A stretch of DNA of 64,000 nt, taken from an uncultured bacterium (GTDB taxonomy: Bacteria > Hinthialibacterota > Hinthialibacteria > OLB16). The notes beneath the pieces were generated by a model. The model was given only the letters and a program-made list of their open reading frames with translations. It ran no database searches and had not been told where the DNA came from. The stretch covers positions 20,221-84,220 of the forward strand of contig CAYZUX010000002.1 in the NCBI GenBank assembly GCA_964481775.1, in the 5' to 3' direction. The translations under genes were made by a program, and so were the position numbers. Shown piece after piece: positions 31,322 to 42,038 of this stretch. The number at the start of each line of letters is the position of its first letter. The first letter of the stretch is position 1.

Positions 31322-32698
31322 ATGCGCTTCCTTTCAATCTTGAGTGGGTGGATCAACGAACGTACGGGTGTCCGCGCCGTAATCCACTCCCTCCGGGATT
31401 CACCACTTCCCGGGGGTGTCCGCTGGGCAAATACACTTGGCCCAGCTTTGGTGACAACTCTGGTGTTCGAGTGTCTGAGCGGAGTCCTCCTTTCTCTCTC
31501 TTATTCACCCGGCGTCGACTCCGCACATTCAAGTGTCGCTTTCCTCTCCAGGGAAACAACGCTCGGGATGCTCTTCCGAAGCGTGCACTCTTACGGTGCC
31601 CATCTGATTGTGATCCTGATGATTCTGTGTGGTTTGAGGGCGCTCCTTGCCCGTGAGTACACCCGCCCCAGGGAGATTCAGTGGGTGCTGGGACTCGTGC
31701 TGGCAGGGCTGATTATCACCATTGCCACCACCGGCTACCTGTTGCCCTGGGATCAATACGGTTACTGGGGGACTCAAGTCCGGACCTCGATCATGGGGTC
31801 AGTTCCAGTCGTTGGCGAGTATGTCAAAATGGTTGCATTGGGTGGAACAGAGATTGGCAATCTGACCCTGACCCGTTTTTATACCGGGCATGTGGTCCTC
31901 TTTCCGGTGTTGCTTCTCATCGGTTTGATCCTTTACGTAGCTCTGAGGGTGAGGAACGCTTATTCATCCGTGGTGGATCACCCGAATCTGGTCACCACCT
32001 ATTGGCCAGGGCAGGCCTGCCGGGATGTGATGGTAAGTCTTGTAGTTATTGGTTCTCTTTTCCTCCTTGCGTTTTTCATACCGGTGAAACTCGGGAGCAT
32101 CGCCGATCCGCTTGAGACCTACCCAGCACGTCCAGAATGGTATTTCCGTTGGCTTTTTCAAACCTTGAAATATCTCGCCCCCCCCTTTGAGGTGGTTGGT
32201 ACAGTAGTGATCCCTCACGCCATTCTGGTCCTCCTGGCGTTGATTCCATTCATTGACAGAAGGCCCCTGCCACGTTCTGGGAGGAAGATAGTTCTCGGCT
32301 CAGTGGCTCTCCTGGGCCTGGCCTGGGCAATTCTGTCGGGCATTTCGTTCCTTGAGGACTACCGTTCCGGGCATTTCAGGGAAATCGCGATGTGGGAGGC
32401 TCAAGCCGATCCTTCCTTTGATACCGAGGAGTTTTACAAATCCAAATGTAATCGCTGCCATGGACGTGATGGAGCAGGGATGCTTGACAGCACCCCTGAT
32501 TTTACTTCGGGTGATTACTGGTCTGGAGTCCGTTCGGATGTCCGTCTTGTCAAGGCAATTCTTGAGGGTGTTCCCAATCCCGGCATCTCTGAAGATGAAG
32601 TGATGCCCTCTTTCTCGGACTTGATCGGTCCCTCGGAGGCAAAGGCGCTTGTTGAGAGGAAAATCCGCACCTTCGCCCCAAGTGGTGAGGAAGAGTAA
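31322..32698 (+). CDS. Cytochrome b (bc complex) with fused C-terminal mono-heme cytochrome c domain
   Basis: Starts 4 nt after the Rieske stop; the track start at 31184 overlaps Rieske and is rejected. Cytochrome b His motifs (VHSYGAHLIVILMI, TGYLLPWDQYGYWG) and a PEWY motif (ARPEWYF). C-terminal CNRCHG plus Met ligand region VMPSF. Confidence 0.85.
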   Translation: MRFLSILSGWINERTGVRAVIHSLRDSPLPGGVRWANTLGPALVTTLVFECLSGVLLSLSYSPGVDSAHSSVAFLSRETTLGMLFRSVHSYGAHLIVILMILCGLRALLAREYTRPREIQWVLGLVLAGLIITIATTGYLLPWDQYGYWGTQVRTSIMGSVPVVGEYVKMVALGGTEIGNLTLTRFYTGHVVLFPVLLLIGLILYVALRVRNAYSSVVDHPNLVTTYWPGQACRDVMVSLVVIGSLFLLAFFIPVKLGSIADPLETYPARPEWYFRWLFQTLKYLAPPFEVVGTVVIPHAILVLLALIPFIDRRPLPRSGRKIVLGSVALLGLAWAILSGISFLEDYRSGHFREIAMWEAQADPSFDTEEFYKSKCNRCHGRDGAGMLDSTPDFTSGDYWSGVRSDVRLVKAILEGVPNPGISEDEVMPSFSDLIGPSEAKALVERKIRTFAPSGEEE

Positions 32699-32733
32699 GA
32701 CGAGCTCACTCCTTCCAGAACCTGTTCCTGGCC

Positions 32734-33306
32734 TTAACGCTGAACACTTGTTCGTTCCGCGATCTCTTCAAGCTTGAGTTCAATCTCAAGCAGTTTCTCG
32801 CGTGTCTTCAGCTCCGCCTGTTCGATGCAATTACGGATCAGGAAGAGCGCGCCCATCAGCAGGTAGACTAATCCGCTCAGAACCATAAACACCGATTTGA
32901 CTGAATCGGGGTGCTTCCCAGCTTCCATCAGGAAGATAATCATCATGGTCAGGGTAACTCCCCAGGCCCAGTTCGCCATCCAGGTGGGGTGTTGCCGACT
33001 CTTGTGGACTCCACCTTTCAGGATCCACACTGCCATGCCCACCCAGGCAAAGGCGAAAGCAGCCCCGATGGCAAAGCCAATGCGAATCAGAGGCGGCAAC
33101 CCTCCTCCAAGCACGGCAGCCGTTGTGAAAGTCACACCCAGACCAACCGAGAGTAGTCCAGTCGCGACCAGGCCCCACTTCCTCATCCCTTTCAGTTCCT
33201 GGTTTAACATCTCAGAAACCTCCTTTTCATATTTCCGCCGATATTCGGGATTGGTTTGTTCCATACGAATTAACTGTTCACGAAGCCGTGTGGGTTCCTC
33301 AGGCAT
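32734..33306 (-). CDS. 4-TM membrane protein co-transcribed with the ECF sigma factor (possible anti-sigma or sensor partner)
   Basis: 8-nt overlap with the upstream ECF sigma gene. Four hydrophobic helices. No ZAS motif. Confidence 0.4.
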   Translation of the reverse strand: MPEEPTRLREQLIRMEQTNPEYRRKYEKEVSEMLNQELKGMRKWGLVATGLLSVGLGVTFTTAAVLGGGLPPLIRIGFAIGAAFAFAWVGMAVWILKGGVHKSRQHPTWMANWAWGVTLTMMIIFLMEAGKHPDSVKSVFMVLSGLVYLLMGALFLIRNCIEQAELKTREKLLEIELKLEEIAERTSVQR

Positions 33307-33859
33307 GAAGGCGATCCTCCTTTTCCAGGATCTCTCTTAGCGAACGTTTGGCATAATGAAGCCGTGATTTGACTGTGTTCTCGGGTATGCCTAAGACCTC
33401 CGAGATCTCAGCAAGGGACAGGTCCTCCAGGAAATGCAGAGTAAGCACCTCACGGTGGTGGAGAGAGACCTGATCCAAGGCATAATGGACCCGTTCGACC
33501 TCCTCGAAGCCATTCTCCTCATGACCAGCGAAGTCATCCGAATCGGGGGGATCCTCCGGGAAGAGGTCCTGATCCCGGTAGCGTTTCCTCAGCAGATTCA
33601 TGGCTTGATTTCGAGCGGTCCGGTAGAGCCAGGGAGAAAGCGCTTTGGGGTCACGCAGATTTCGGATACCTCGCAGCACGCTGATCCAAGTCTCCTGGAG
33701 GGCATCCCAGGCATCGCTCTCATTGCTGAGAAGGCGGCGGATGTAATAAAAGAGCCGTCCCTCCCACAAACGGATCAACTCCTCCATGGCTCCCTCGGCG
33801 CCACGCCGGCAACGCAAGGCCAGCAACTCGTTGTGTATGGATTCTTTGTTGGAGCGCAA
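33299..33859 (-). CDS. RNA polymerase ECF-type sigma-70 factor
   Basis: Region 2 (ALQETWISVLRGIRNLRDPKALSPWLYRTARNQAMNLLRKR) and region 4 HTH (LSLAEISEVLGIPENTVKSRLHYAKRSLREIL). Confidence 0.85.
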   Translation of the reverse strand: MRSNKESIHNELLALRCRRGAEGAMEELIRLWEGRLFYYIRRLLSNESDAWDALQETWISVLRGIRNLRDPKALSPWLYRTARNQAMNLLRKRYRDQDLFPEDPPDSDDFAGHEENGFEEVERVHYALDQVSLHHREVLTLHFLEDLSLAEISEVLGIPENTVKSRLHYAKRSLREILEKEDRLHA

Positions 33860-33947
33860 GGGATTGACCTGCTTTCAACAAATAGAGTCGACTAGAATAC
33901 GGGAAAGGTTCAATTCTTTTGTTTTGGAAGCTAAACTGGAGTTATCA

Positions 33948-34436
33948 ATGAAAAAACTGAAAGTCTATCTGGACACCTCGGTGATCAGTTTCCTTTACGC
34001 AGATGATGTTCCTGATTTGCGGGGAGTTACAGAGGCGTTCTTTGATGACTATGTCCTGCCGGAGAAATACTTGGTTCACATTTCAGATGTGGTCGTCCGG
34101 GAGATCCTGAAGACAAAACACACCGCTAAGAGGGAATTACTCCTCAATGTCATCCGCCAATATCCGATGCGAATTCTATCACCCACTCAGGAAACAGACC
34201 GTCTTGCCGAGGTTTATCTACACGAGGGAGTGGTTCCCCAATCGAAATGGGAGGACGCTCAACACATAGCAATCGCTACTTGCTACCAGATGGATGTCCT
34301 CCTATCATGGAATTTCAAACACTTGGCCAATATCCAGAAGCAGCTTATAGTTAAGATAGCAAACGAGAGGGAAGGGTACTGTAACCCACTCCTGTTGATT
34401 AATCCGATGGAGCTTTTGTATGAAATCGGCAGTTGA
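33948..34436 (+). CDS. PIN-domain protein (VapC-like putative toxin)
   Basis: VYLDTSVISFLYADD (N-terminal Asp), REIL (Glu), DAQHIAIATC and DVLLSWNFKH match the PIN acidic tetrad layout. Start at MKKLKV; the upstream extension in the track is discarded. Confidence 0.45.
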   Translation: MKKLKVYLDTSVISFLYADDVPDLRGVTEAFFDDYVLPEKYLVHISDVVVREILKTKHTAKRELLLNVIRQYPMRILSPTQETDRLAEVYLHEGVVPQSKWEDAQHIAIATCYQMDVLLSWNFKHLANIQKQLIVKIANEREGYCNPLLLINPMELLYEIGS

Positions 34437-34614
34437 TGAAATCACCAGGTCTCTCGAAGAAGTGTGGGAGATGAAGCAGGCGGTGTTCGAGGACATCAAG
34501 AACATGTCCTCCGAAGAACGGCGAGTTTATTACCATAAGGGCCTTGAGGAGGCTGCACACCTCCTCGGGGTCACCCTTGTCGAGAACCCAGACGGAACGA
34601 AGTCGTTCATTTAG
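34420..34614 (+). CDS. Small hypothetical protein overlapping the 3' end of the PIN gene by 17 nt
   Basis: 64-aa charged ORF. Could be a cognate partner of the PIN gene or spurious. Confidence 0.3.
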   Translation: MKSAVDEITRSLEEVWEMKQAVFEDIKNMSSEERRVYYHKGLEEAAHLLGVTLVENPDGTKSFI

Positions 34615-34622
34615 ATAAACTC

Positions 34623-35696
34623 TCACCCCACCAGAGGAACTGTTTTCTTCAGCCTCGCACTGAGCACTGCCGAATCCACAATCCTCTGCCCGATGCGTCC
34701 AATCTCTGGTGACAGAGGTCCTCGCACCGGTTCATTGGATTCCAGGCAATGGATGAAGTACTCGATGGGATTCCGCCGGGGTGGTTCGAGTGTGTCCACT
34801 GGGATGTCCTTCCCTTCTGGACACTCCCGAGTCTGGAGGCGGATGGTCTTTTCGTAGTCGTAACTGCTGATGGTCCCCTCCGTCCCCTTGAGCACGAATC
34901 CGCATTTGGGTTGCGGTTGATGAGTCCAGGGATCCGTGAAGGTGCCCCAGCGGGTTTCAAACTTGGAGAGACCGCAGTCATAGCGAACCACGGTGATGCT
35001 GTGCTCATCGACCTCAAGCCCGGGTGGTTCATCAACCACACAGGTTACTTCCAGAGGGATTTTCCCTCCATGGAACCAGGTTCCCAGAGTAACCCCATAA
35101 CCGAGGTAATCGAGCAGCGAACCGCCGCCCTTCTCTCTCTGATAAAACCAACTCTCGGATTTCTTGGCGGCTGCTTCGGCGCTGGTTTCAGCTTTATCCG
35201 CCACATGCCAGAGCGGGCCTCGATTGCCATCGTAGTAGTGAACCTCGATCAGATCTCCGATGACTCCTTCATCGATCAGACGCTTGGAGGTGACATGCGG
35301 CGGGTACCAGGCCAGCGGCCAGTTGATGGCCAGCAACTTTCCTGATTTGCCCGCTGCCTGGATCATTGAATCGGCCTCCGACAAAGACGCCGCGAAGGGT
35401 TTCTCCACCAGCAAATGGACATGGTACTCAGCCACTTTGCAGGTCCACTCGCCATGGGTCGCGGTGGCGGGACAGAGGATGGCGGCATCCGGCTCGGTCT
35501 TTTCAAGACACTCACGGTAGTCCGTGAAGATCATGCTCTCCGGAATCGAGAGCCACTCAGCCACCTTCATCATCGTGGAGCGATCCTCATGGCAGATTCC
35601 CACCACCTCCGCGTTGGGGTGCTCTTTCACCATCCGTAGCAGATCGCCCATGTGCATGTGATCGAAGTTGATGCCGACAAAGCGCCAGGGTTTCAT
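34623..35696 (-). CDS. Gfo/Idh/MocA family NAD(P)-dependent oxidoreductase
   Basis: N-terminal Rossmann MKPWRFVGINFDHMHMGDLL...AEVVGICHED, EKPFAASLSEADSM and the C-terminal alpha/beta domain. Confidence 0.85.
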   Translation of the reverse strand: MKPWRFVGINFDHMHMGDLLRMVKEHPNAEVVGICHEDRSTMMKVAEWLSIPESMIFTDYRECLEKTEPDAAILCPATATHGEWTCKVAEYHVHLLVEKPFAASLSEADSMIQAAGKSGKLLAINWPLAWYPPHVTSKRLIDEGVIGDLIEVHYYDGNRGPLWHVADKAETSAEAAAKKSESWFYQREKGGGSLLDYLGYGVTLGTWFHGGKIPLEVTCVVDEPPGLEVDEHSITVVRYDCGLSKFETRWGTFTDPWTHQPQPKCGFVLKGTEGTISSYDYEKTIRLQTRECPEGKDIPVDTLEPPRRNPIEYFIHCLESNEPVRGPLSPEIGRIGQRIVDSAVLSARLKKTVPLVG

Positions 35697-36064
35697 AGGT
35701 CGTATTCCCTCCTGAGCCGTAGTTTTGAATCCGTTAAGACAGCCATCAGAGGCCCTTGTGGAGCCTCCACTTGAATCTCTTCAAGAGCAGCAAAATTTTT
35801 TTCGATGACCCTGCCAAGAATGAAAGGATGGAATCTGAGTAGCAGAACCCGTGACTGGCCTCCTCTGAAATGAGTCTGGCGAAGGTAACCAAAGTCCTTA
35901 TCCGAACTCAGTAAAAGATCAAAATCTTCCATGGATCTTTCAAGGTAGACCTCATCCTTTGCCGACTGAAGCCTCATTTGATCACAGGAGAGTACAGAAT
36001 AACCGGCATTCCGGCGGGCGCGGATCAAACCCGGTGGAACGTTCTCATCGGCAAGGTTTCGCAT
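35693..36064 (-). CDS. DUF5615-family protein (Mut7-C/PIN-like putative toxin partner of DUF433)
   Basis: MRNLADENVPPGLIRARRNAGYSVLSC...SSDKDFGYL matches the DUF5615 consensus (LlDEN.p...L...G..V). ATGA overlap with the downstream oxidoreductase. Confidence 0.6.
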   Translation of the reverse strand: MRNLADENVPPGLIRARRNAGYSVLSCDQMRLQSAKDEVYLERSMEDFDLLLSSDKDFGYLRQTHFRGGQSRVLLLRFHPFILGRVIEKNFAALEEIQVEAPQGPLMAVLTDSKLRLRREYDL

Positions 36065-36301
36065 TCAATGAGATCGTAAAGGGACAGAGGATTCAGTCTC
36101 TTGATCCACCAATTTCCAAGCATATTCAAGCGCAGCCAGAATGCTTTCCCGGCTTAGGTGAGGATAACTCTCCAGAACTTCCTCATAGCTCCATCCTGAA
36201 AACAGGAGGTTCAAAATGAATTCCACGCTGATACGGGTTCGTTTGATAATCGGCTTCCCGCTGAGTATATCGGGATTCCGGTCTATCCGCTCTTCCCACA
36301 T
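36065..36301 (-). CDS. DUF433-family protein (putative antitoxin-like partner)
   Basis: SGKPIIKRTRISVEFILNLLFSGWSYEEVLESYPHLSRESILAALEYA matches the DUF433 consensus (kP.I.GTRI.V..IL..L..G.s.eEIL..YP.L..EdI.AAL.YA). Confidence 0.65.
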   Translation of the reverse strand: MWEERIDRNPDILSGKPIIKRTRISVEFILNLLFSGWSYEEVLESYPHLSRESILAALEYAWKLVDQETESSVPLRSH

Positions 36302-36345
36302 GGCTGTGTCCTCCGTGACTCAGTATAGCAATCCTGCAAGGACTG

Positions 36346-37158
36346 CTAAGCCGTCACCCTCCCCTGCATTTCCCCCCACTCCCGCCTTGCGATCTGTAAC
36401 ACCTGATCATTGGGTAGCTTTTGAATGGGGGCATAGGGAGCATGGTGGAATTGTTTGTAAGGGATGTTGTGGGCGGTGTTGTAACAGCAGATGAGGGACC
36501 AGCGGGGATTGGGACTGCGGTTCTGGTCGGAACGGTGCAGCAGGTTGGCATGGAAGAAAAGCCCCGTGCCCGGCTCCATCTCACAGAAGACATGCGGTAG
36601 ACGTTGAAGAGCCTGCTCCACCCGTTCCATATCCGCGCCGGTCTGATCGCCGGTGACACCATGGTTGACTCTTCCCATTTTATGGGATCCCTGAATCACC
36701 TGAAGGCAACCATTCTCCTTCGTTGCACGGTCGACCGCGATCATGCAGCTGGCCATGTCCGGAAAGAGGCAGGCATCGTTGTACCAGTAGCCATAGTCCT
36801 GGTGCCATTCCCAGGCCCCACCGACATAAGGCTCCTTGAGCATCATCTTGTGATGGAGGTGGTATACTTCATCACCAAGCAGACGCTCCATGGTGGCTAC
36901 AATCCGCTCGCAGCGTACACAGGCGCTGTAGAGGTCATCGCCGAGAACCGAACGGAGCGTGAGACGGCTGATCCCGCCCTGGCTGTCCTTACGGTCCCAG
37001 GCCTCCGAGGCAAGCGCCTGATCGGCACGTGCAATTTTCAATAGAAGCTCAGTCTCTTCTTGCGAGAAGAGCCCTGGCACCATCAGAAAACCATCTTTTT
37101 CAAACTGGGAAATCTGAGACGCGGTGACTTGGAAAATCAATCGAATCCTCCCCTTCAT
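36346..37158 (-). CDS. Phytanoyl-CoA dioxygenase (PhyH) family Fe(II)/2-oxoglutarate oxygenase
   Basis: LSQFEKDGFLMVPGLFSQEETELL N-terminal region and a HxD...H-type core (HQDYGYW..., GSHKMG). Confidence 0.7.
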   Translation of the reverse strand: MKGRIRLIFQVTASQISQFEKDGFLMVPGLFSQEETELLLKIARADQALASEAWDRKDSQGGISRLTLRSVLGDDLYSACVRCERIVATMERLLGDEVYHLHHKMMLKEPYVGGAWEWHQDYGYWYNDACLFPDMASCMIAVDRATKENGCLQVIQGSHKMGRVNHGVTGDQTGADMERVEQALQRLPHVFCEMEPGTGLFFHANLLHRSDQNRSPNPRWSLICCYNTAHNIPYKQFHHAPYAPIQKLPNDQVLQIARREWGEMQGRVTA

Positions 37159-37217
37159 CGGAACGAGAAACTACTCGTCCCAGCAGATCTACCAGCCGTT
37201 GAAAAAGTGATAACAAT

Positions 37218-37293
37218 GGATTCCCGCTTTCGCGGGAATGACGAAGCGAGCAAGAACATTCGGAAATCGTCATTCCCGCGAAAGCGGGAATCC
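37218..37293. repeat. Perfect 27-bp inverted repeat (22-nt spacer); each arm is itself a sub-palindrome (cruciform-capable element)
   Basis: ggattcccgctttcgcgggaatgacga at 37218-37244 is the exact reverse complement of tcgtcattcccgcgaaagcgggaatcc at 37267-37293. Inner hairpin ttcccgc-tttc-gcgggaa. Intergenic between two minus-strand genes. Confidence 0.85.
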
Positions 37294-37346
37294 ACTGCAA
37301 CTCCCCATATTCGGATTCTTCAACGGATTCCGATCATGGAATCAAC

Positions 37347-38174
37347 TCAGTTCTTGCCGCGATCCGACCCGGTGTCATCGCCCTCATTATCCGAGCGCTC
37401 CGGGAAGGTTCCCGTGTCAGTGTCTTCATCGTTCTCATCGCCATGCTCGCCTGGACCAAACTGTGAGCCACCGCCAGGTAGAACGCCTTGTGCACCACCA
37501 GCGCGTCCAGTCTGGGTGGTACCACCCATCGAGCCTTGGATAAAGGTTCCATTCGGTTCGATATCCAGTGTGTCACCATCATCCAGAAGCCGCCTGCTCT
37601 TCCTCGTCCTCGGGTCGAGGATCGCAATTTTTCCGCGGAAAACACGGAACTTCACTTTGGGATTGCCTTGGACAGCAGGAAGGACCCTGGTACTGAACTT
37701 GGTTCCACGGACCGCGGCGACAGCGGTTGGGGTCTGGACCTCGAAACGTTCCGAGTTGGGATCGATCTTGCGGACATTCGCTATCACATGTCCTTCCGCA
37801 ACACGAACTCCTATGGTTTCGCCTCCACTGGCAACATCTGTAAAAAGCTCATTGAGTTTCACTCGAGAGCGCTCATCGATCTCAACCGTGGTTTGAGAAG
37901 GAGCCTCGCTTCCCGCAGGACCGGTCTTTCCCTCGATCAACAATTTGACACGGGATTTCGGCCCAGTCAGCAGGATGTGTCCCTGCTCCAGCCGGGTTTT
38001 ATTCACCTGGACAATAAACCGTTCCGGAGAACCTTCCTTGTAGAACTGCGCCTTCCCCGCTGCCTCGATGACCAGAGCGGTGAGTTGGGGGGGATTGGCG
38101 GGTTGAGCCTGCACGGTCAAAGCAGAGATGCAGGCAAGGAAACTGACCCTGAGGAAGGTAGAGATTGTGCGCAT
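37347..38174 (-). CDS. Secreted FecR-domain-like protein with acidic C-terminal tail
   Basis: Signal peptide MRTISTFLRVSFLACISALTVQAQP. FecR-like TAVAAVRGTKFSTRV. D/E/G-rich C-terminus. Confidence 0.45.
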   Translation of the reverse strand: MRTISTFLRVSFLACISALTVQAQPANPPQLTALVIEAAGKAQFYKEGSPERFIVQVNKTRLEQGHILLTGPKSRVKLLIEGKTGPAGSEAPSQTTVEIDERSRVKLNELFTDVASGGETIGVRVAEGHVIANVRKIDPNSERFEVQTPTAVAAVRGTKFSTRVLPAVQGNPKVKFRVFRGKIAILDPRTRKSRRLLDDGDTLDIEPNGTFIQGSMGGTTQTGRAGGAQGVLPGGGSQFGPGEHGDENDEDTDTGTFPERSDNEGDDTGSDRGKN

Positions 38175-38287
38175 TTGCGAGCTCCTTACGAGTGTGCGAA
38201 GATCTTATGGGATGCCTTTCGATTCTCCAAGTCAGAAAATCATCTTACCTTTAGTATAGCCGCTTCCACGAAGATGACACGTAGAGA

Positions 38288-39820
38288 TTATGCTTCGTTC
38301 CCCGCCAGCATGGGGGAGAGGGCATTCTTGGCCTTATCACGGATCCCTTGCGGGATGGTTCTCTGAAGGAGCTGAACCGCGTAAGGGGCCTGTCCAGGGA
38401 AAAAGAACTGGAGGCGCTCAGGGTGGTTTCTGAAGAACCGTGAGGCCGCCAGCCTGCGGATCAGACCGGGTGAGCGGTATTGCGAGAGAAGGTAGAGACG
38501 ATTGAAAAAGGCATAGCGTTTTTCATCCAATGGATGAGTATCCTTCTGCTCCTCGTAAACCCGGGTCAATTCGTAATTGGGAAAATAAGACAGATAACTG
38601 AGCGTGTCGCTGCCAATCTTGACCGGTTGGGGCATTGCCAGCAACAGGTCAAGGGTTTTCTGGCAGTCCTCCTCGGTCTCAAGTGGGTTATTGGTGATGA
38701 TATCGATGGAATACTCAATGCCCGCCTCGGAGAGATTGCGCGCTGCCTCCAGCACCATGTCGCGTGGCGCGGGACGTCCATACTGGTTGATCAAGACCTC
38801 CTCGCTCCCGCTCTGGACTCCCATACGCACCTCGACCTCCCCGGCGCTCTTTAGGAGTGCACAGATATTCCTGTCACATTGCTGGGGGTAAACATAAGCC
38901 CAATAAGGCAACCCAATTTCGGCTTTATAACGGGGGAGAAAGACCTTCAGCCATTCCTTGTGGATCGAGAAGATGTCATCCCAGAAATGGATCTTCTTGA
39001 CGTTATATCGGGCTTTGACGGTCTTCAGGATTTCAAGGGCATAATCCACACTGTGACGGCGGACATAGCGTTGCCCCTTGTACATGTCATGGAGCACGTT
39101 GTGAATACAGAAGGTGCACTTGTAGGGGCAACCACGCGATGTGCTGAAAAGGAAATCATCCCAACAGTCACGGTCCACACGGGGCCAGAGTCCATCCCAG
39201 CTGATCTCGAACTTGTCCTGAGGCTCGAAGTCTGGGAGTGGTAAACGGTCCAGGTCCTGGATCAGGGGACGCAGGCTATTGCGGAAGACCTTGCCATTTT
39301 CTTTGGCCCAGATGTTCTGGATCCCGGTAAGGTCTCCTTTTCTGTCCCAGGCAGCAGCAAACTCAGCGAGGGGGTCCTCGCCCTCGCTGATGCACAGGTA
39401 ATCCGCGAACTGGATATCAAACTCCGGGTTAACGGTCGGTTCGATTCCACCCCAGATCACCTTCAGCCCCAATTCATTACGGATCCGTTCGGTGACTTCC
39501 CTTGCAGTGTTGATGAACTTGGAGGTCAGACTGATTCCCACAAAGTCACACTTGCGTTCACGAATCAGATCGATAAGGAGCTTCCATTCCGTCTCCGAAA
39601 TCCGTCGCGGATAACAGTAGGCAATCTCGCCGCGCGAACAAAGGCCGACATTGACCTCATCGATCACTGGTTCAGGTGGGAAATCGGCCTTCATCAGAAC
39701 CTCATACTGCTTAAGGTAGATGACAGTGACCTCATGGCCATGCTGCTTGAGGTATGCCGACAGGTAGCGGATACCAAGTGCCACCGTGTCATACATTGAA
39801 ATCAGGGCAATACGTGCCAT
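38288..39820 (-). CDS. B12-binding domain radical SAM enzyme (class B rSAM)
   Basis: N-terminal cobalamin-binding fold (MARIALISMYDTVALGIRYLSAYLKQHGHEV) and rSAM cluster TSRGCPYKCTFCIH. Confidence 0.8.
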   Translation of the reverse strand: MARIALISMYDTVALGIRYLSAYLKQHGHEVTVIYLKQYEVLMKADFPPEPVIDEVNVGLCSRGEIAYCYPRRISETEWKLLIDLIRERKCDFVGISLTSKFINTAREVTERIRNELGLKVIWGGIEPTVNPEFDIQFADYLCISEGEDPLAEFAAAWDRKGDLTGIQNIWAKENGKVFRNSLRPLIQDLDRLPLPDFEPQDKFEISWDGLWPRVDRDCWDDFLFSTSRGCPYKCTFCIHNVLHDMYKGQRYVRRHSVDYALEILKTVKARYNVKKIHFWDDIFSIHKEWLKVFLPRYKAEIGLPYWAYVYPQQCDRNICALLKSAGEVEVRMGVQSGSEEVLINQYGRPAPRDMVLEAARNLSEAGIEYSIDIITNNPLETEEDCQKTLDLLLAMPQPVKIGSDTLSYLSYFPNYELTRVYEEQKDTHPLDEKRYAFFNRLYLLSQYRSPGLIRRLAASRFFRNHPERLQFFFPGQAPYAVQLLQRTIPQGIRDKAKNALSPMLAGNEA

Positions 39821-39896
39821 GAGGATAGGTCCCTTCTGTGTAAACCTTATTTTCTGGCCGGGTTAGACTATAGTCAACCGGAAACCAAATGCCACC

Positions 39897-40706
39897 ATGC
39901 AACCCATTCAGCCCCCCTCCAAGACTCTGCTCAGCCGGATCCGCAAACTCCAGACCCGCAAGGGACGCGAAGAGAGTCATCGATTTCTGGCCGAGGGATA
40001 CAAATTGGTCAAAGAATGCCTCACTGCTGGTGTATGTTGTCATTCCCTGATCTTTTCAGATGATTTTCCCGAGTCTTGCCAGGAGGAACTGACTTCATGG
40101 CTCCTCCCCCTTGCTCATGTTACCGCAACCATGATGGATCGTGCGGCTTTTGACCGTCTATGTGACACACAAACCCCACAGGGAGTTCTCGGTGAGTTCG
40201 ATCAGCCCGCAGCCCCCGGTTTGTCCATGCTGGAGTCTGGCCTCGGATTGGTGATAGTTCTCGACGAGGTTCAGGACCCAGGTAATGTGGGAACCTCGAT
40301 CCGGGTGGCGGCGGGGTTAGGCGCCAGGGGAGTGGTGCTCACTCATGGGTGTGCCGATTTGTGGAATCCCAAGGTGGTGCGTGCCTCGGCGGGGGCTGTG
40401 TTCCATATTCCGGTTTGGAGTGGAGTAAACTCAATGGAGATGGCGCAAATCCTCCCTTCCAAGGGGTATGCAGTCTGGGTGGCGGATGCTTCAGGGGCAT
40501 CGCTTTTTGAGGAGAAAAAGAGTCCCGAGCGACTGGCGCTTGTGATGGGAAACGAAGCCCATGGTGCTTCCCTGGCCTGGTTCGAGATCCCTGGCAGCAA
40601 ACGGATCGGCCTTCCCATGGCTCATGGGGTGGAGTCCCTGAATGTGGGAACTGCTTTGGCGGCAATACTGGGTTGGATATGGGGAAACAGATTATCCCCC
40701 GGTTAA
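39897..40706 (+). CDS. TrmH/SpoU family RNA 2'-O-methyltransferase (RlmB-like)
   Basis: SpoU motif 1 VIVLDEVQDPGNVGTSIRVAAGLG; motifs 2/3 LVMGNEAHG and GVESLNVGTALA. Confidence 0.8.
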   Translation: MQPIQPPSKTLLSRIRKLQTRKGREESHRFLAEGYKLVKECLTAGVCCHSLIFSDDFPESCQEELTSWLLPLAHVTATMMDRAAFDRLCDTQTPQGVLGEFDQPAAPGLSMLESGLGLVIVLDEVQDPGNVGTSIRVAAGLGARGVVLTHGCADLWNPKVVRASAGAVFHIPVWSGVNSMEMAQILPSKGYAVWVADASGASLFEEKKSPERLALVMGNEAHGASLAWFEIPGSKRIGLPMAHGVESLNVGTALAAILGWIWGNRLSPG

Positions 40707-40736
40707 TTTTCCGTGATTGAGGCAGCCTGTACCGCA

Positions 40737-42038
40737 TCACCTGGGAAACAAATCCATCGCCAAATCACGGAATCCTCGAACCCGGTGTACAGTCGCCAAG
40801 TCGGCATCATGCTGATCCCTGCCATTGACAGATGTCCGTGAGAGGACCACCAGGTCTTCTCCATCCACCAACGCGGCAGGATACATAAATGACTGGTGCG
40901 GATCCCGTGTGTTGGCGATACATCCAGCGGGAAACCAATTCAACGCATCCACACTGTAAGACAGCATCAGGAAACGTCGGTCGTTGCCAGGACCACCCGC
41001 GAACCGTTTGTTTTCCCGGATACGGTCCCACTGAAAAACAACCCCCTGTGAGTCTGCGGGCAGGTTGGCGGTCATCCAGAAAAGGCCTGATTTCTCATCA
41101 TGCAGGATGAAGAACTTGTTCTGTCCACCGGGCATCGGATAGAACTGAGTGAAGCGGAGATCCATTTTTCCACCATCCTCAGAAAGGTCGCAGACTGCTG
41201 CCAGGCCAGCTGTGGCATAGCCATCAAGCACCGTTCGAGACATAACCCGGATCTGCCCTTGTACAAGAACCACATTGGGCTCCAACCAACTGTCATCCGG
41301 CCACTGCTCCCATTCGGGCAACATGACAGGATACATTCCCCGAACAACCTCTCGTGGTGTGGACGGTTTTGGGGCTTCACTGGACATACGCCATGCGGAT
41401 GAAGACAACAGATCCTGGCCAAGATCACCCGCAATCACCACCGTCCCACCCTGGTAGCCACCGCTGTTGAGTGCCCAGTAAAGCCGGTTTTGGTGGATGA
41501 CCATCCCAGTGTGGCAATTCCAGTAAGAACCCTGGAACAATAACACCGGTTGAGACCAGGTTTCTCCCTCATCCAGGCTCTTCACGAGCGAGACATTCTC
41601 CCATTTAGCTGGCTGGACAAACATGTAAGTGACACCCTCATGAACAAAGGGGGTGGCATCTGAATAAGGAAGGGTTGGAAGAGGTGTCCAGGTCTTTCCT
41701 CCATCCAAACTGCGTGAGAGAAAAGTCTGCCAGGATCGCACCCCATGCCAGTCATCGGTAGCTCGTTCCAGGCAGGGCGCTGCTACCAGTAAACCACCGG
41801 AAGGCAGACGGACAATGCCTGGATCATGGATGTAATAGCGACCCGTCTCGGGGACACGGGTTGCGATCCAGTAATCCTGAACCAAGGGTGTCATCATTCC
41901 TCCCTGGAGATGCTGGCTCGATCCTAACAGGAAAAGCAGGGATATCAGACACCTTGTCACCCGGAGAATGACATCTGTCCGAGACGGCATGGCAGGTTTC
42001 CTGCCCCCGGATTCCCGGTACATGGCCAGACCAGACAC
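40737..42038 (-). CDS. Secreted BNR/Asp-box sialidase-like glycosyl hydrolase
   Basis: N-terminal hydrophobic signal region. Asp-boxes SLDGGKTWTP, SLDEGETWSQ, SEDGGKMD. The start may be internal. Confidence 0.55.
   Translation of the reverse strand: MSGLAMYRESGGRKPAMPSRTDVILRVTRCLISLLFLLGSSQHLQGGMMTPLVQDYWIATRVPETGRYYIHDPGIVRLPSGGLLVAAPCLERATDDWHGVRSWQTFLSRSLDGGKTWTPLPTLPYSDATPFVHEGVTYMFVQPAKWENVSLVKSLDEGETWSQPVLLFQGSYWNCHTGMVIHQNRLYWALNSGGYQGGTVVIAGDLGQDLLSSSAWRMSSEAPKPSTPREVVRGMYPVMLPEWEQWPDDSWLEPNVVLVQGQIRVMSRTVLDGYATAGLAAVCDLSEDGGKMDLRFTQFYPMPGGQNKFFILHDEKSGLFWMTANLPADSQGVVFQWDRIRENKRFAGGPGNDRRFLMLSYSVDALNWFPAGCIANTRDPHQSFMYPAALVDGEDLVVLSRTSVNGRDQHDADLATVHRVRGFRDLAMDLFPR

Follow-up and report, generated by a model that had tools for sequence, protein, structure and literature searches.

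A probable REPIN/MITE-like doublet of NTS motifs between a FecR-like and a PhyH gene of Candidatus Hinthialibacterota

A perfect palindrome in a bacterial genome of the OLB16 lineage is the core of a longer repeat, which is probably a non-autonomous, dispersed element of REPIN/MITE-like type. We propose that this element, about 147 nt long and built on an inverted doublet of NTS motifs, was inserted between a FecR-like and a PhyH gene, and that its partner is a protein of the Ssn type. It lies in a stretch of 64 kb, hereafter the window, and the NCBI taxonomy places OLB16 within Candidatus Hinthialibacterota. An earlier note on the same DNA had described the palindrome as MITE/REP-like and possibly mobile. 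This description is now supported by the published motif that forms the arms, by multicopy doublets in other genomes and by an orthologous site that is free of the element.

Both the Ssn/NTS system and REPINs have already been published, and the finding will not surprise a specialist. It places an Ssn/NTS-type element outside the Proteobacteria, in a candidate phylum of which little is known, OLB16 (Ca. Hinthialibacterota), and the comparison of a filled with an empty site gives the unit defined boundaries. Three observations that are absent from the paper on the Ssn system (PMC11893778) are relevant to the spread of these repeats. The motif is usually the core of longer, family-specific units, the loops of paired arms co-vary, and the spacer between them flips its orientation within families; the last two are possibly new.

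Structure of the palindrome and identity of its arms

The earlier note had reported a perfect 27-bp inverted repeat around a 22-nt spacer, with a hairpin nested in each arm and no second copy in the window, and all of this was borne out. The sequence GGATTCCCGCTTTCGCGGGAATGACGA occupies 37218-37244 and its exact reverse complement 37267-37293, with 22 nt between them. If one mismatch is allowed, an inverted-repeat finder lengthened the arms to 31 nt (97%; 37214-37244 and 37267-37297). The 27-mer occurs at these two sites only within the 64-kb window and was matched in none of 100 dinucleotide shuffles, and a relaxed search of the window for the core returned no additional copy. On folding, a single arm forms a hairpin of its own with an 8-bp stem (ATTCCCGC/GCGGGAAT) and a 4-nt loop, at -9 kcal/mol as single-stranded DNA for each arm. 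The whole region reaches -78.3 kcal/mol as RNA (z = -9.6) and -43.4 kcal/mol as single-stranded DNA (z = -8.4). The shuffles (0 out of 100) and the z-scores of the folds rule out a chance palindrome. As single-stranded DNA the doublet prefers one long stem of 28 bp (-43 kcal/mol) over two separate NTS hairpins (-9 kcal/mol each).

As had been noted, the peptides RFRGND, IPAFAGMT, SFPRKRES and RESGNP are all present in the six-frame translation, and the open reading frames at 37100-37300 (minus strand) and 37238-37543 (plus strand) exist as mechanical ORFs. No match came back when the 60-aa translation of the unit was used as a protein query. For annotation, the element explains the spurious RFRGND/IPAFAGMT/SFPRKRES 'proteins'. 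Its position between two minus-strand genes was confirmed with Pfam, which identifies the neighbours as FecR-like (37347-38174) and PhyH (36346-37158). An Rfam scan of 36000-38500 at E <= 10 returned sub-threshold matches alone over the element, and no RNA family fits.

These sub-threshold matches, at 37190-37291 (plus) and 37203-37273 (minus), were to Mahella-1 RNA (22.8 bits, gathering threshold 70.7) and to the Francisella sRNA FtrB (22.6 bits, gathering threshold 66). The core sequence is also present in a paper on Francisella sRNAs. NTS-like repeats may be the source of some of the transcripts that have been described as 'sRNAs'.

The arms themselves correspond to a motif with a known binding protein. 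The Neisseria Transformation Sequence (NTS) is a 28-nt motif, CGTCATTCCCGCGMAVGCGGGAATCYRG, and constitutes a longer, oriented form of the Neisseria repeat dRS3 (Chenal et al., Nat Commun 2025, PMC11893778). It is bound, solely as single-stranded DNA, by SsnA, a GIY-YIG protein of 94 aa, and NTS-like motifs flank ssn genes in many phyla (PMC11893778). Ssn proteins are of the single-domain GIY-YIG type (cd10448). According to the same study, binding depends critically on the C that follows the palindrome, and cleavage on the three bases that precede it. The criterion used there is a match to CGTCATTCCCGCGMAVGCGGGAATCYRG with at most one mismatch, and each arm of the window departs from the consensus at the last position alone (Table 1). 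The GTC upstream and the C downstream of the palindrome are kept in both arms, so that all experimentally critical positions are retained. Both arms also match exactly the dRS3 definition, ATTCCC-N8-GGGAAT. In their sequence, both arms thus belong to the NTS / Ssn-related motif (SRM).

Table 1. Features of the element in the window, and ssn genes at NTS-bearing loci of other genomes (positions within the named locus)
Feature	Position	Strand	Remarks
Full repeat unit (outer inverted repeat and NTS doublet)	37188..37334, boundaries +/-3 nt		Long-gap alignment with L325; co66_130 copies
Outer inverted repeat, left arm CCGTTGAAAAA	37196..37206		11 nt, 91% complementary (1 mismatch)
Left arm, forward NTS 28-mer CGTCATTCCCGCGAAAGCGGGAATCCAT	37216..37243	-	27/28 to consensus; includes 37218-37244
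Left-arm local hairpin	37220-37239		-9 kcal/mol
Spacer, loop of the long hairpin	37245..37266		22 nt; 59% identical to co66_130 consensus
Right arm, forward NTS 28-mer CGTCATTCCCGCGAAAGCGGGAATCCAC	37268..37295	+	27/28 to consensus; includes 37267-37293
Right-arm local hairpin	37272-37291		-9 kcal/mol
Outer inverted repeat, right arm TTCTTCAACGG	37316..37326		Pairs with 37196-37206 in RNA and DNA folds
ssn gene, L122	3051-3317		Window-type doublet 3-40 nt away
ssn gene, L037	988-1251
ssn gene, L233	6430-6693		Window-type doublet 3-40 nt away
ssn gene, L160	66-338		Window-type doublet 3-40 nt away
ssn gene, L148	611-892		Window-type doublet 3-40 nt away
ssn gene, L004	2852-3120
ssn gene, L123	8658-8966		Window-type doublet 3-40 nt away; upstream forward NTS overlaps provisional ORF start
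ssn gene, L092	7826-8107

Filled and empty sites and the limits of the unit

The 76-bp element of the earlier note is a real palindrome, but it forms just the centre of a unit that measures about 147 nt. The FecR-like protein, used as a query, led to the ENA contig 'Bacteria_p_OLB16_contig_3127' (L325), which carries an 88% identical homologue and has the same gene order as the window (SpoU methylase, radical SAM, FecR, PhyH, DUF433, GFO_IDH_MocA). The two sequences are 85-89% identical by blastn on both sides of the element, and the distance between these anchors is 83 nt in L325 versus 185 nt in the window. In a long-gap pairwise alignment (backed by a MAFFT alignment), five nucleotides of L325 (TAAAG) stand opposite the 147 nt at 37188-37334. 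Read on the minus strand, the window has ...GTTGATTCCATG, the 147 nt and TCTGCTGGGACGA..., and L325 has ...AGTGATTGTATG, TAAAG and TCTGCTGGAACGA.... The two loci are a filled and an empty site. The element is also present in another contig, L322 (JGI 3300022664), which agrees with window 31347-41713 at 99.99% identity. No target-site duplication is clear at the junctions of the unit; GATC occurs at both ends, yet it is palindromic.

Two more loci, L326 and L327, are unalignable in the intergenic region, so that an insertion in the lineage of the window is indistinguishable by alignment from a deletion in L325. With no alignable outgroup, we infer the direction of the change from the dispersed relatives of the element. 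The NTS motif is absent from L325 (14.5 kb), L326, L327 and the locus of Ca. Omnitrophica bacterium COP1 (12.8 kb), which holds the best named match to the PhyH protein (78%). A single copy in 64 kb, and its absence from the L325 and COP1 sequences, may indicate a low copy number in this lineage. The COP1 locus itself was discarded as an empty-site comparison: a fucosidase gene lies upstream of PhyH there and synteny is lost.

Further observations concern the surroundings of the element. In JGI 3300075153, next to a 91% identical PhyH orthologue, the upstream intergenic region is 91 nt long versus 188 nt in the window, that is 97 nt shorter; judged by this length, the contig is probably a second empty site. 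Between PhyH and GFO_IDH_MocA, the window carries a toxin-antitoxin-like pair of DUF5615/PIN-like and DUF433 genes (35693-36301). The pair is absent from the COP1 relative (L237), where PhyH and GFO_IDH_MocA abut. In L325 about 130 nt are missing inside the DUF5615 gene (window 35838-35967), which marks a second indel-prone spot beside the element. Three Logan contigs from two sequencing runs, all 100% identical to the window, stop inside the element (L001 ends at 37246, L324 starts at 37269 and L323 ends at 37315). Possible reasons for these breaks are other copies in the sample, a mixture of filled and empty alleles, or a drop of coverage at the hairpin.

The empty site also bears on whether the hairpin arose in place as a structure that belongs to the host genes, namely as a terminator or mRNA stabiliser of the FecR-like gene or an attenuator of PhyH. 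Its position between two co-oriented genes and its very stable RNA fold would suit such a role, as would one terminator-like match on the minus strand, where the left-arm hairpin is followed by CCATTGTTAT. Terminator-like matches are however at the level of shuffled sequence (3 versus 2.6 expected), and the long hairpin has no immediate U-tract: on the minus strand, UUGUUAUCAC comes next and a run of five U only 14 nt later. The orthologous intergenic region of L325 lacks the element and still has the flanking genes and a small conserved hairpin, and the same arms are scattered over hundreds of unrelated loci from many phyla. We therefore rejected a gene-specific terminator on the absence from L325, the dispersed arms and the missing U-tract, and consider an origin of the hairpin in place highly improbable. 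The terminator role offered by the earlier note finds little support, given that the syntenic relative lives without the element and that the long hairpin lacks a U-tract behind it. The element lies within an apparent string of co-directional genes, and as a side effect it could plausibly stabilise the transcript or cause pausing, as REPs do.

The small hairpin that is kept in L325 lies at window 37160-37181 on the minus strand (GGGACGAG-TAGTTT-CTCGTTCC), between the element and the ribosome-binding site of PhyH. It may be a native terminator or a regulatory structure of the intergenic region.

The limits of the unit could be read a second time from copies in another genome. When the window was compared by blastn with loci that carry NTS doublets, the similarity to copies of the metagenome-assembled genome (MAG) binchicken_co66_130 ran past the arms. 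Five dispersed copies of this MAG, aligned with the window, have in common an outer inverted repeat, CAGCCTGTTGAAAAAG ... TTTTTCAACGGaCTG, which corresponds to window 37196-37206 and 37316-37326. The five copies are 81-99% identical to each other inside the equivalent of 37188-37334 and 31-33% identical outside. The limits taken from the gap in L325 and those taken from the co66_130 copies agree independently on 37188-37334. Among the NTS-bearing loci analysed, the outer motif CAGCCTGTTGAAAAAG was seen only beside NTS doublets. Compared with the co66_130 consensus, the window is 89-96% identical in the arms, 59% in the spacer and 56-58% in the outer parts, and this difference suggests constraint on the arms. 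In a second family, from Desulfobacterales PL24a_bin.4, the NTS doublet is likewise the core of a longer unit, in this case of more than 220 nt.

Copies in other genomes and candidate partner proteins

According to the earlier note, an element that was single-copy and without homologues elsewhere would be a gene-specific terminator. Homologues of the arms and of the doublet were found in many genomes, and the element is clearly not of that kind. More than 120 contigs of predicted viral or prophage origin, which is a lower bound, contain the 24-nt core (with the loop left free) between entirely unrelated flanks; the commonest loops among those listed are GCAG, GAAG and GAAA. By comparison, 471 kb of unrelated metagenomic PhyH loci, from which the contigs of the window were excluded, contained one NTS-like site, so that the motif is not background. 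Viral loci seeded by a single NTS gave 229 motif matches. These included 34 inverted pairs of the polarity opposite to that in the window (gap mode 52) and 18 pairs of window polarity, with gaps of 25-98 and mostly of 25-55.

The many matches in predicted viral contigs, together with the agreement of the arms with the dRS3 definition, fit a landing pad: as with dRS3 in Neisseria, an IS110-type recombinase or a filamentous prophage would use the element as its attachment or target site, and the element would not itself be mobile. In the Ssn paper, a phage recombinase is cited as targeting dRS3 (PMC11893778). Nothing is integrated in or beside the copy of the window, however, and what distinguishes the window from its relative is the whole unit and not a cargo within it. 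A landing pad would also leave the spread of the doublets unexplained. As an account of the element we give it very little credence; it is compatible with a dispersed element that has an Ssn-type partner and does not replace it.

We scanned for doublets of window geometry in one genome per species, with the GGATTCC ends outward and a spacer of 5-35. Such tail-to-tail doublets were present at no fewer than 113 genome loci. Among the matches listed, several doublets per MAG were found in Desulfobacterales PL24a_bin.4, the 'uncultured bacterium' binchicken_co66_130, UBA3076 and Magnetococcales, and JANQIE01 and CAYRBI01 had at least 10 copies each. The doublet matches listed span Desulfobacterota, Nitrospirota, Hydrogenedentota, Acidobacteriota, Verrucomicrobiota and Planctomycetota (Pirellulales), and also occur in an OLB16 MAG, in Bacteroidota and in many Proteobacteria; in these six phyla and in OLB16, as in Magnetococcales, single MAGs are multicopy. 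At the doublet loci listed, spacers are conserved within one genome and differ between genomes.

The search for partner proteins returned candidates of one type. Using a GIY-YIG query in tblastn, we found proteins of 94-104 aa in eight of the loci (Table 1), and the five of them that were tested match Pfam PF01541 with E-values of 1e-14 to 1e-17. All eight ssn genes are bracketed by NTS, with a forward copy 3-28 nt upstream and a reverse copy 21-64 nt downstream, and next to seven of the eight a further NTS completes a doublet at one end. These NTS-flanked loci reproduce the published NTS-ssnA-NTS arrangement; the paper describes this arrangement and single NTS copies, without doublet units (PMC11893778). 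When we clustered all ORFs and, separately, those within 150 nt of an NTS, Ssn was the only family that recurred across unrelated loci. The remaining clusters were phage structural genes of related viral contigs or spurious ORFs through the repeats. In the 64-kb window itself, tblastn and phmmer detected no ssn gene. A weak match at 34441-34533 was discarded as ssn, being a 64-aa ORF without GIY-YIG features.

A different partner is expected if the element is a classical REPIN. REPINs are mobilised in trans by RAYTs, the REP-associated Y1 tyrosine transposases of the IS200/IS605 superfamily, and Ssn would then be a bystander that binds the same hairpin. The architecture of the element is exactly that of a REPIN, with two inverted REPs and a short spacer that fold into one long hairpin. 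Moreover, a REPIN master sequence of Neisseria, ATTCCCGCGCAGGCGGGAATC, has the same core as the arms of the window and has been attributed to a Group 2 RAYT (bioRxiv 10.1101/2021.07.10.451892). Against this stands the negative outcome of a tblastn and phmmer search for Y1 transposases in the window and in 235 NTS-bearing loci (~1.9 Mb), whose sensitivity was limited by approximate queries and by the use of 8-kb pieces around the matches, so that a single-copy RAYT is easily missed. The ORFs that adjoin NTS likewise include no Y1 family, whereas Ssn recurs among them. The element is a REPIN by architecture, strict membership with a RAYT partner is not supported, and mobilisation by a RAYT appears to us rather unlikely.

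Possible origin of the element and comparison with known systems

Under the reading that we prefer, a dispersed element with an Ssn-type partner, the unit would have been inserted 11-13 nt downstream of the stop codon of the FecR-like gene in the genome of a member of OLB16 (Ca. Hinthialibacterota). A putative cognate Ssn, assumed here to be encoded outside the 64-kb window since none was found within it, would recognise the arms in single-stranded DNA that is exposed during replication, repair or uptake. For SsnA of N. meningitidis, the cut lies on the 5' side of the forward NTS 28-mer, about 3 nt away from it (PMC11893778). By analogy, the plus strand of the window would be cut near 37264/37265 and the minus strand near 37246/37247; because the 5' sides of the arms face inward, both cuts would lie within the spacer. 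The spread of the element and the perfection of its arms would then both be due to the Ssn/NTS system or to hairpin-driven copying connected with this system. Any influence of the hairpin on the FecR-PhyH transcript, through protection of a 3' end or partial termination, would be a by-product and not the reason for which the element exists. Ssn is not known to mobilise NTS elements. The doublet may even be a protected site or a poor substrate for Ssn, given that the long stem is favoured and that SsnA does not cleave duplex DNA (PMC11893778).

Two further observations indicate that the two arms of a doublet are not independent of each other. In 82 out of 116 doublets (L122-L236), the 4-nt loop of one arm is the exact complement of the other, compared to 26 +/- 4 expected from shuffling, and the same is true of 32 of the 44 spacer families. 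As the identity of the loop is dispensable for SsnA (PMC11893778), the two arms are maintained as mirror images also where the nuclease makes no demand on the sequence. The spacer, for its part, is found in both orientations relative to conserved flanks in 30 of 94 informative pairs of copies. In the family of PL24a_bin.4, three copies have one orientation and seven the other (L124, L129, L135, L153, L162, L179, L204, L205, L214 and L235), and flipped spacers are seen also in the families L132/L133/L161/L187/L190/L201/L222, L157/L192/L218 and L166/L178. This points to an inversion of the spacer in place, a 'flip-flop'. The alternative that doublets were inserted in either direction into an independent target repeat was rejected, as flanks without a doublet have a single example among the NTS-bearing loci analysed, a fragment of the far-right flank at L124:588. 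Complementary loops and flipped spacers together argue that the arms interact, by recombination between them or by hairpin-templated copying.

One could go further and regard NTS doublets as the replicating unit of an undescribed, Ssn-driven mobility of single-stranded DNA hairpins, which proceeds by a nick and hairpin-templated synthesis. Ssn would nick the loop or spacer of the extruded hairpin, and synthesis templated by the hairpin, similar to the hairpin transfer of parvoviral ITRs, would regenerate complementary arms and leave the spacer either way round. Complementary loops, two orientations of the spacer and predicted cuts of both strands within the spacer are what leads to this scheme, which we hold to be quite improbable. 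If true, it would be a mechanism of transposition or copying that is based on a GIY-YIG enzyme and not on a Y1 or DDE enzyme.

Several known systems resemble the element in part. Its arms match the dRS3 definition, ATTCCC-N8-GGGAAT, but the name dRS3 is specific to Neisseria; RS units arrayed between dRS3 copies are lacking here, as is the NIME context, and the host belongs to another phylum. At viral loci, including Neisseria-like arrays (L017 and L082), the commonest pairing has TCATTCC outward and a gap of ~52 nt, whereas the element of the window has GGATTCC outward and a gap of 28 nt. Like a MITE, the unit is short and non-coding, has inverted repeats and is present in one relative and absent from another. 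It differs from MITEs in having no clear target-site duplication and in that its conserved part is internal, namely the arms, and not terminal; we know of no parent IS with matching ends.

Similar to the REP/BIME elements of E. coli, it is made of intergenic palindromic units within an operon-like context. Those elements stabilise the upstream mRNA and have RAYT, IHF and gyrase as partners, and by analogy a comparable stabilisation of the upstream mRNA is plausible here. Both the sequence and the partner proteins differ between the two. The likeness to the REPIN/RAYT system (Bertels and Rainey) extends further, to an inverted pair of hairpins with a short spacer, one long hairpin and the core of the Neisseria master sequence, as well as to multicopy populations with a family sequence specific to the genome, which were seen in other genomes, the 64-kb window having one copy. 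It differs in that no RAYT was detected near any copy examined.

The published NTS/Ssn system differs from the case described here in that the motif occurs as two closely spaced, inverted copies within a 147-nt unit, which has its own outer inverted repeat, and in that the host is an OLB16/Hinthialibacterota genome with no ssn gene within the 64-kb window. What the two have in common are arms that match the NTS at 27 of 28 positions, with oriented, non-palindromic flanks (CGTC... ...C) around a hairpin core of 8 bp and 4 nt, a spread across phyla and, in other genomes, ssn genes bracketed by the motif as in the published arrangement.
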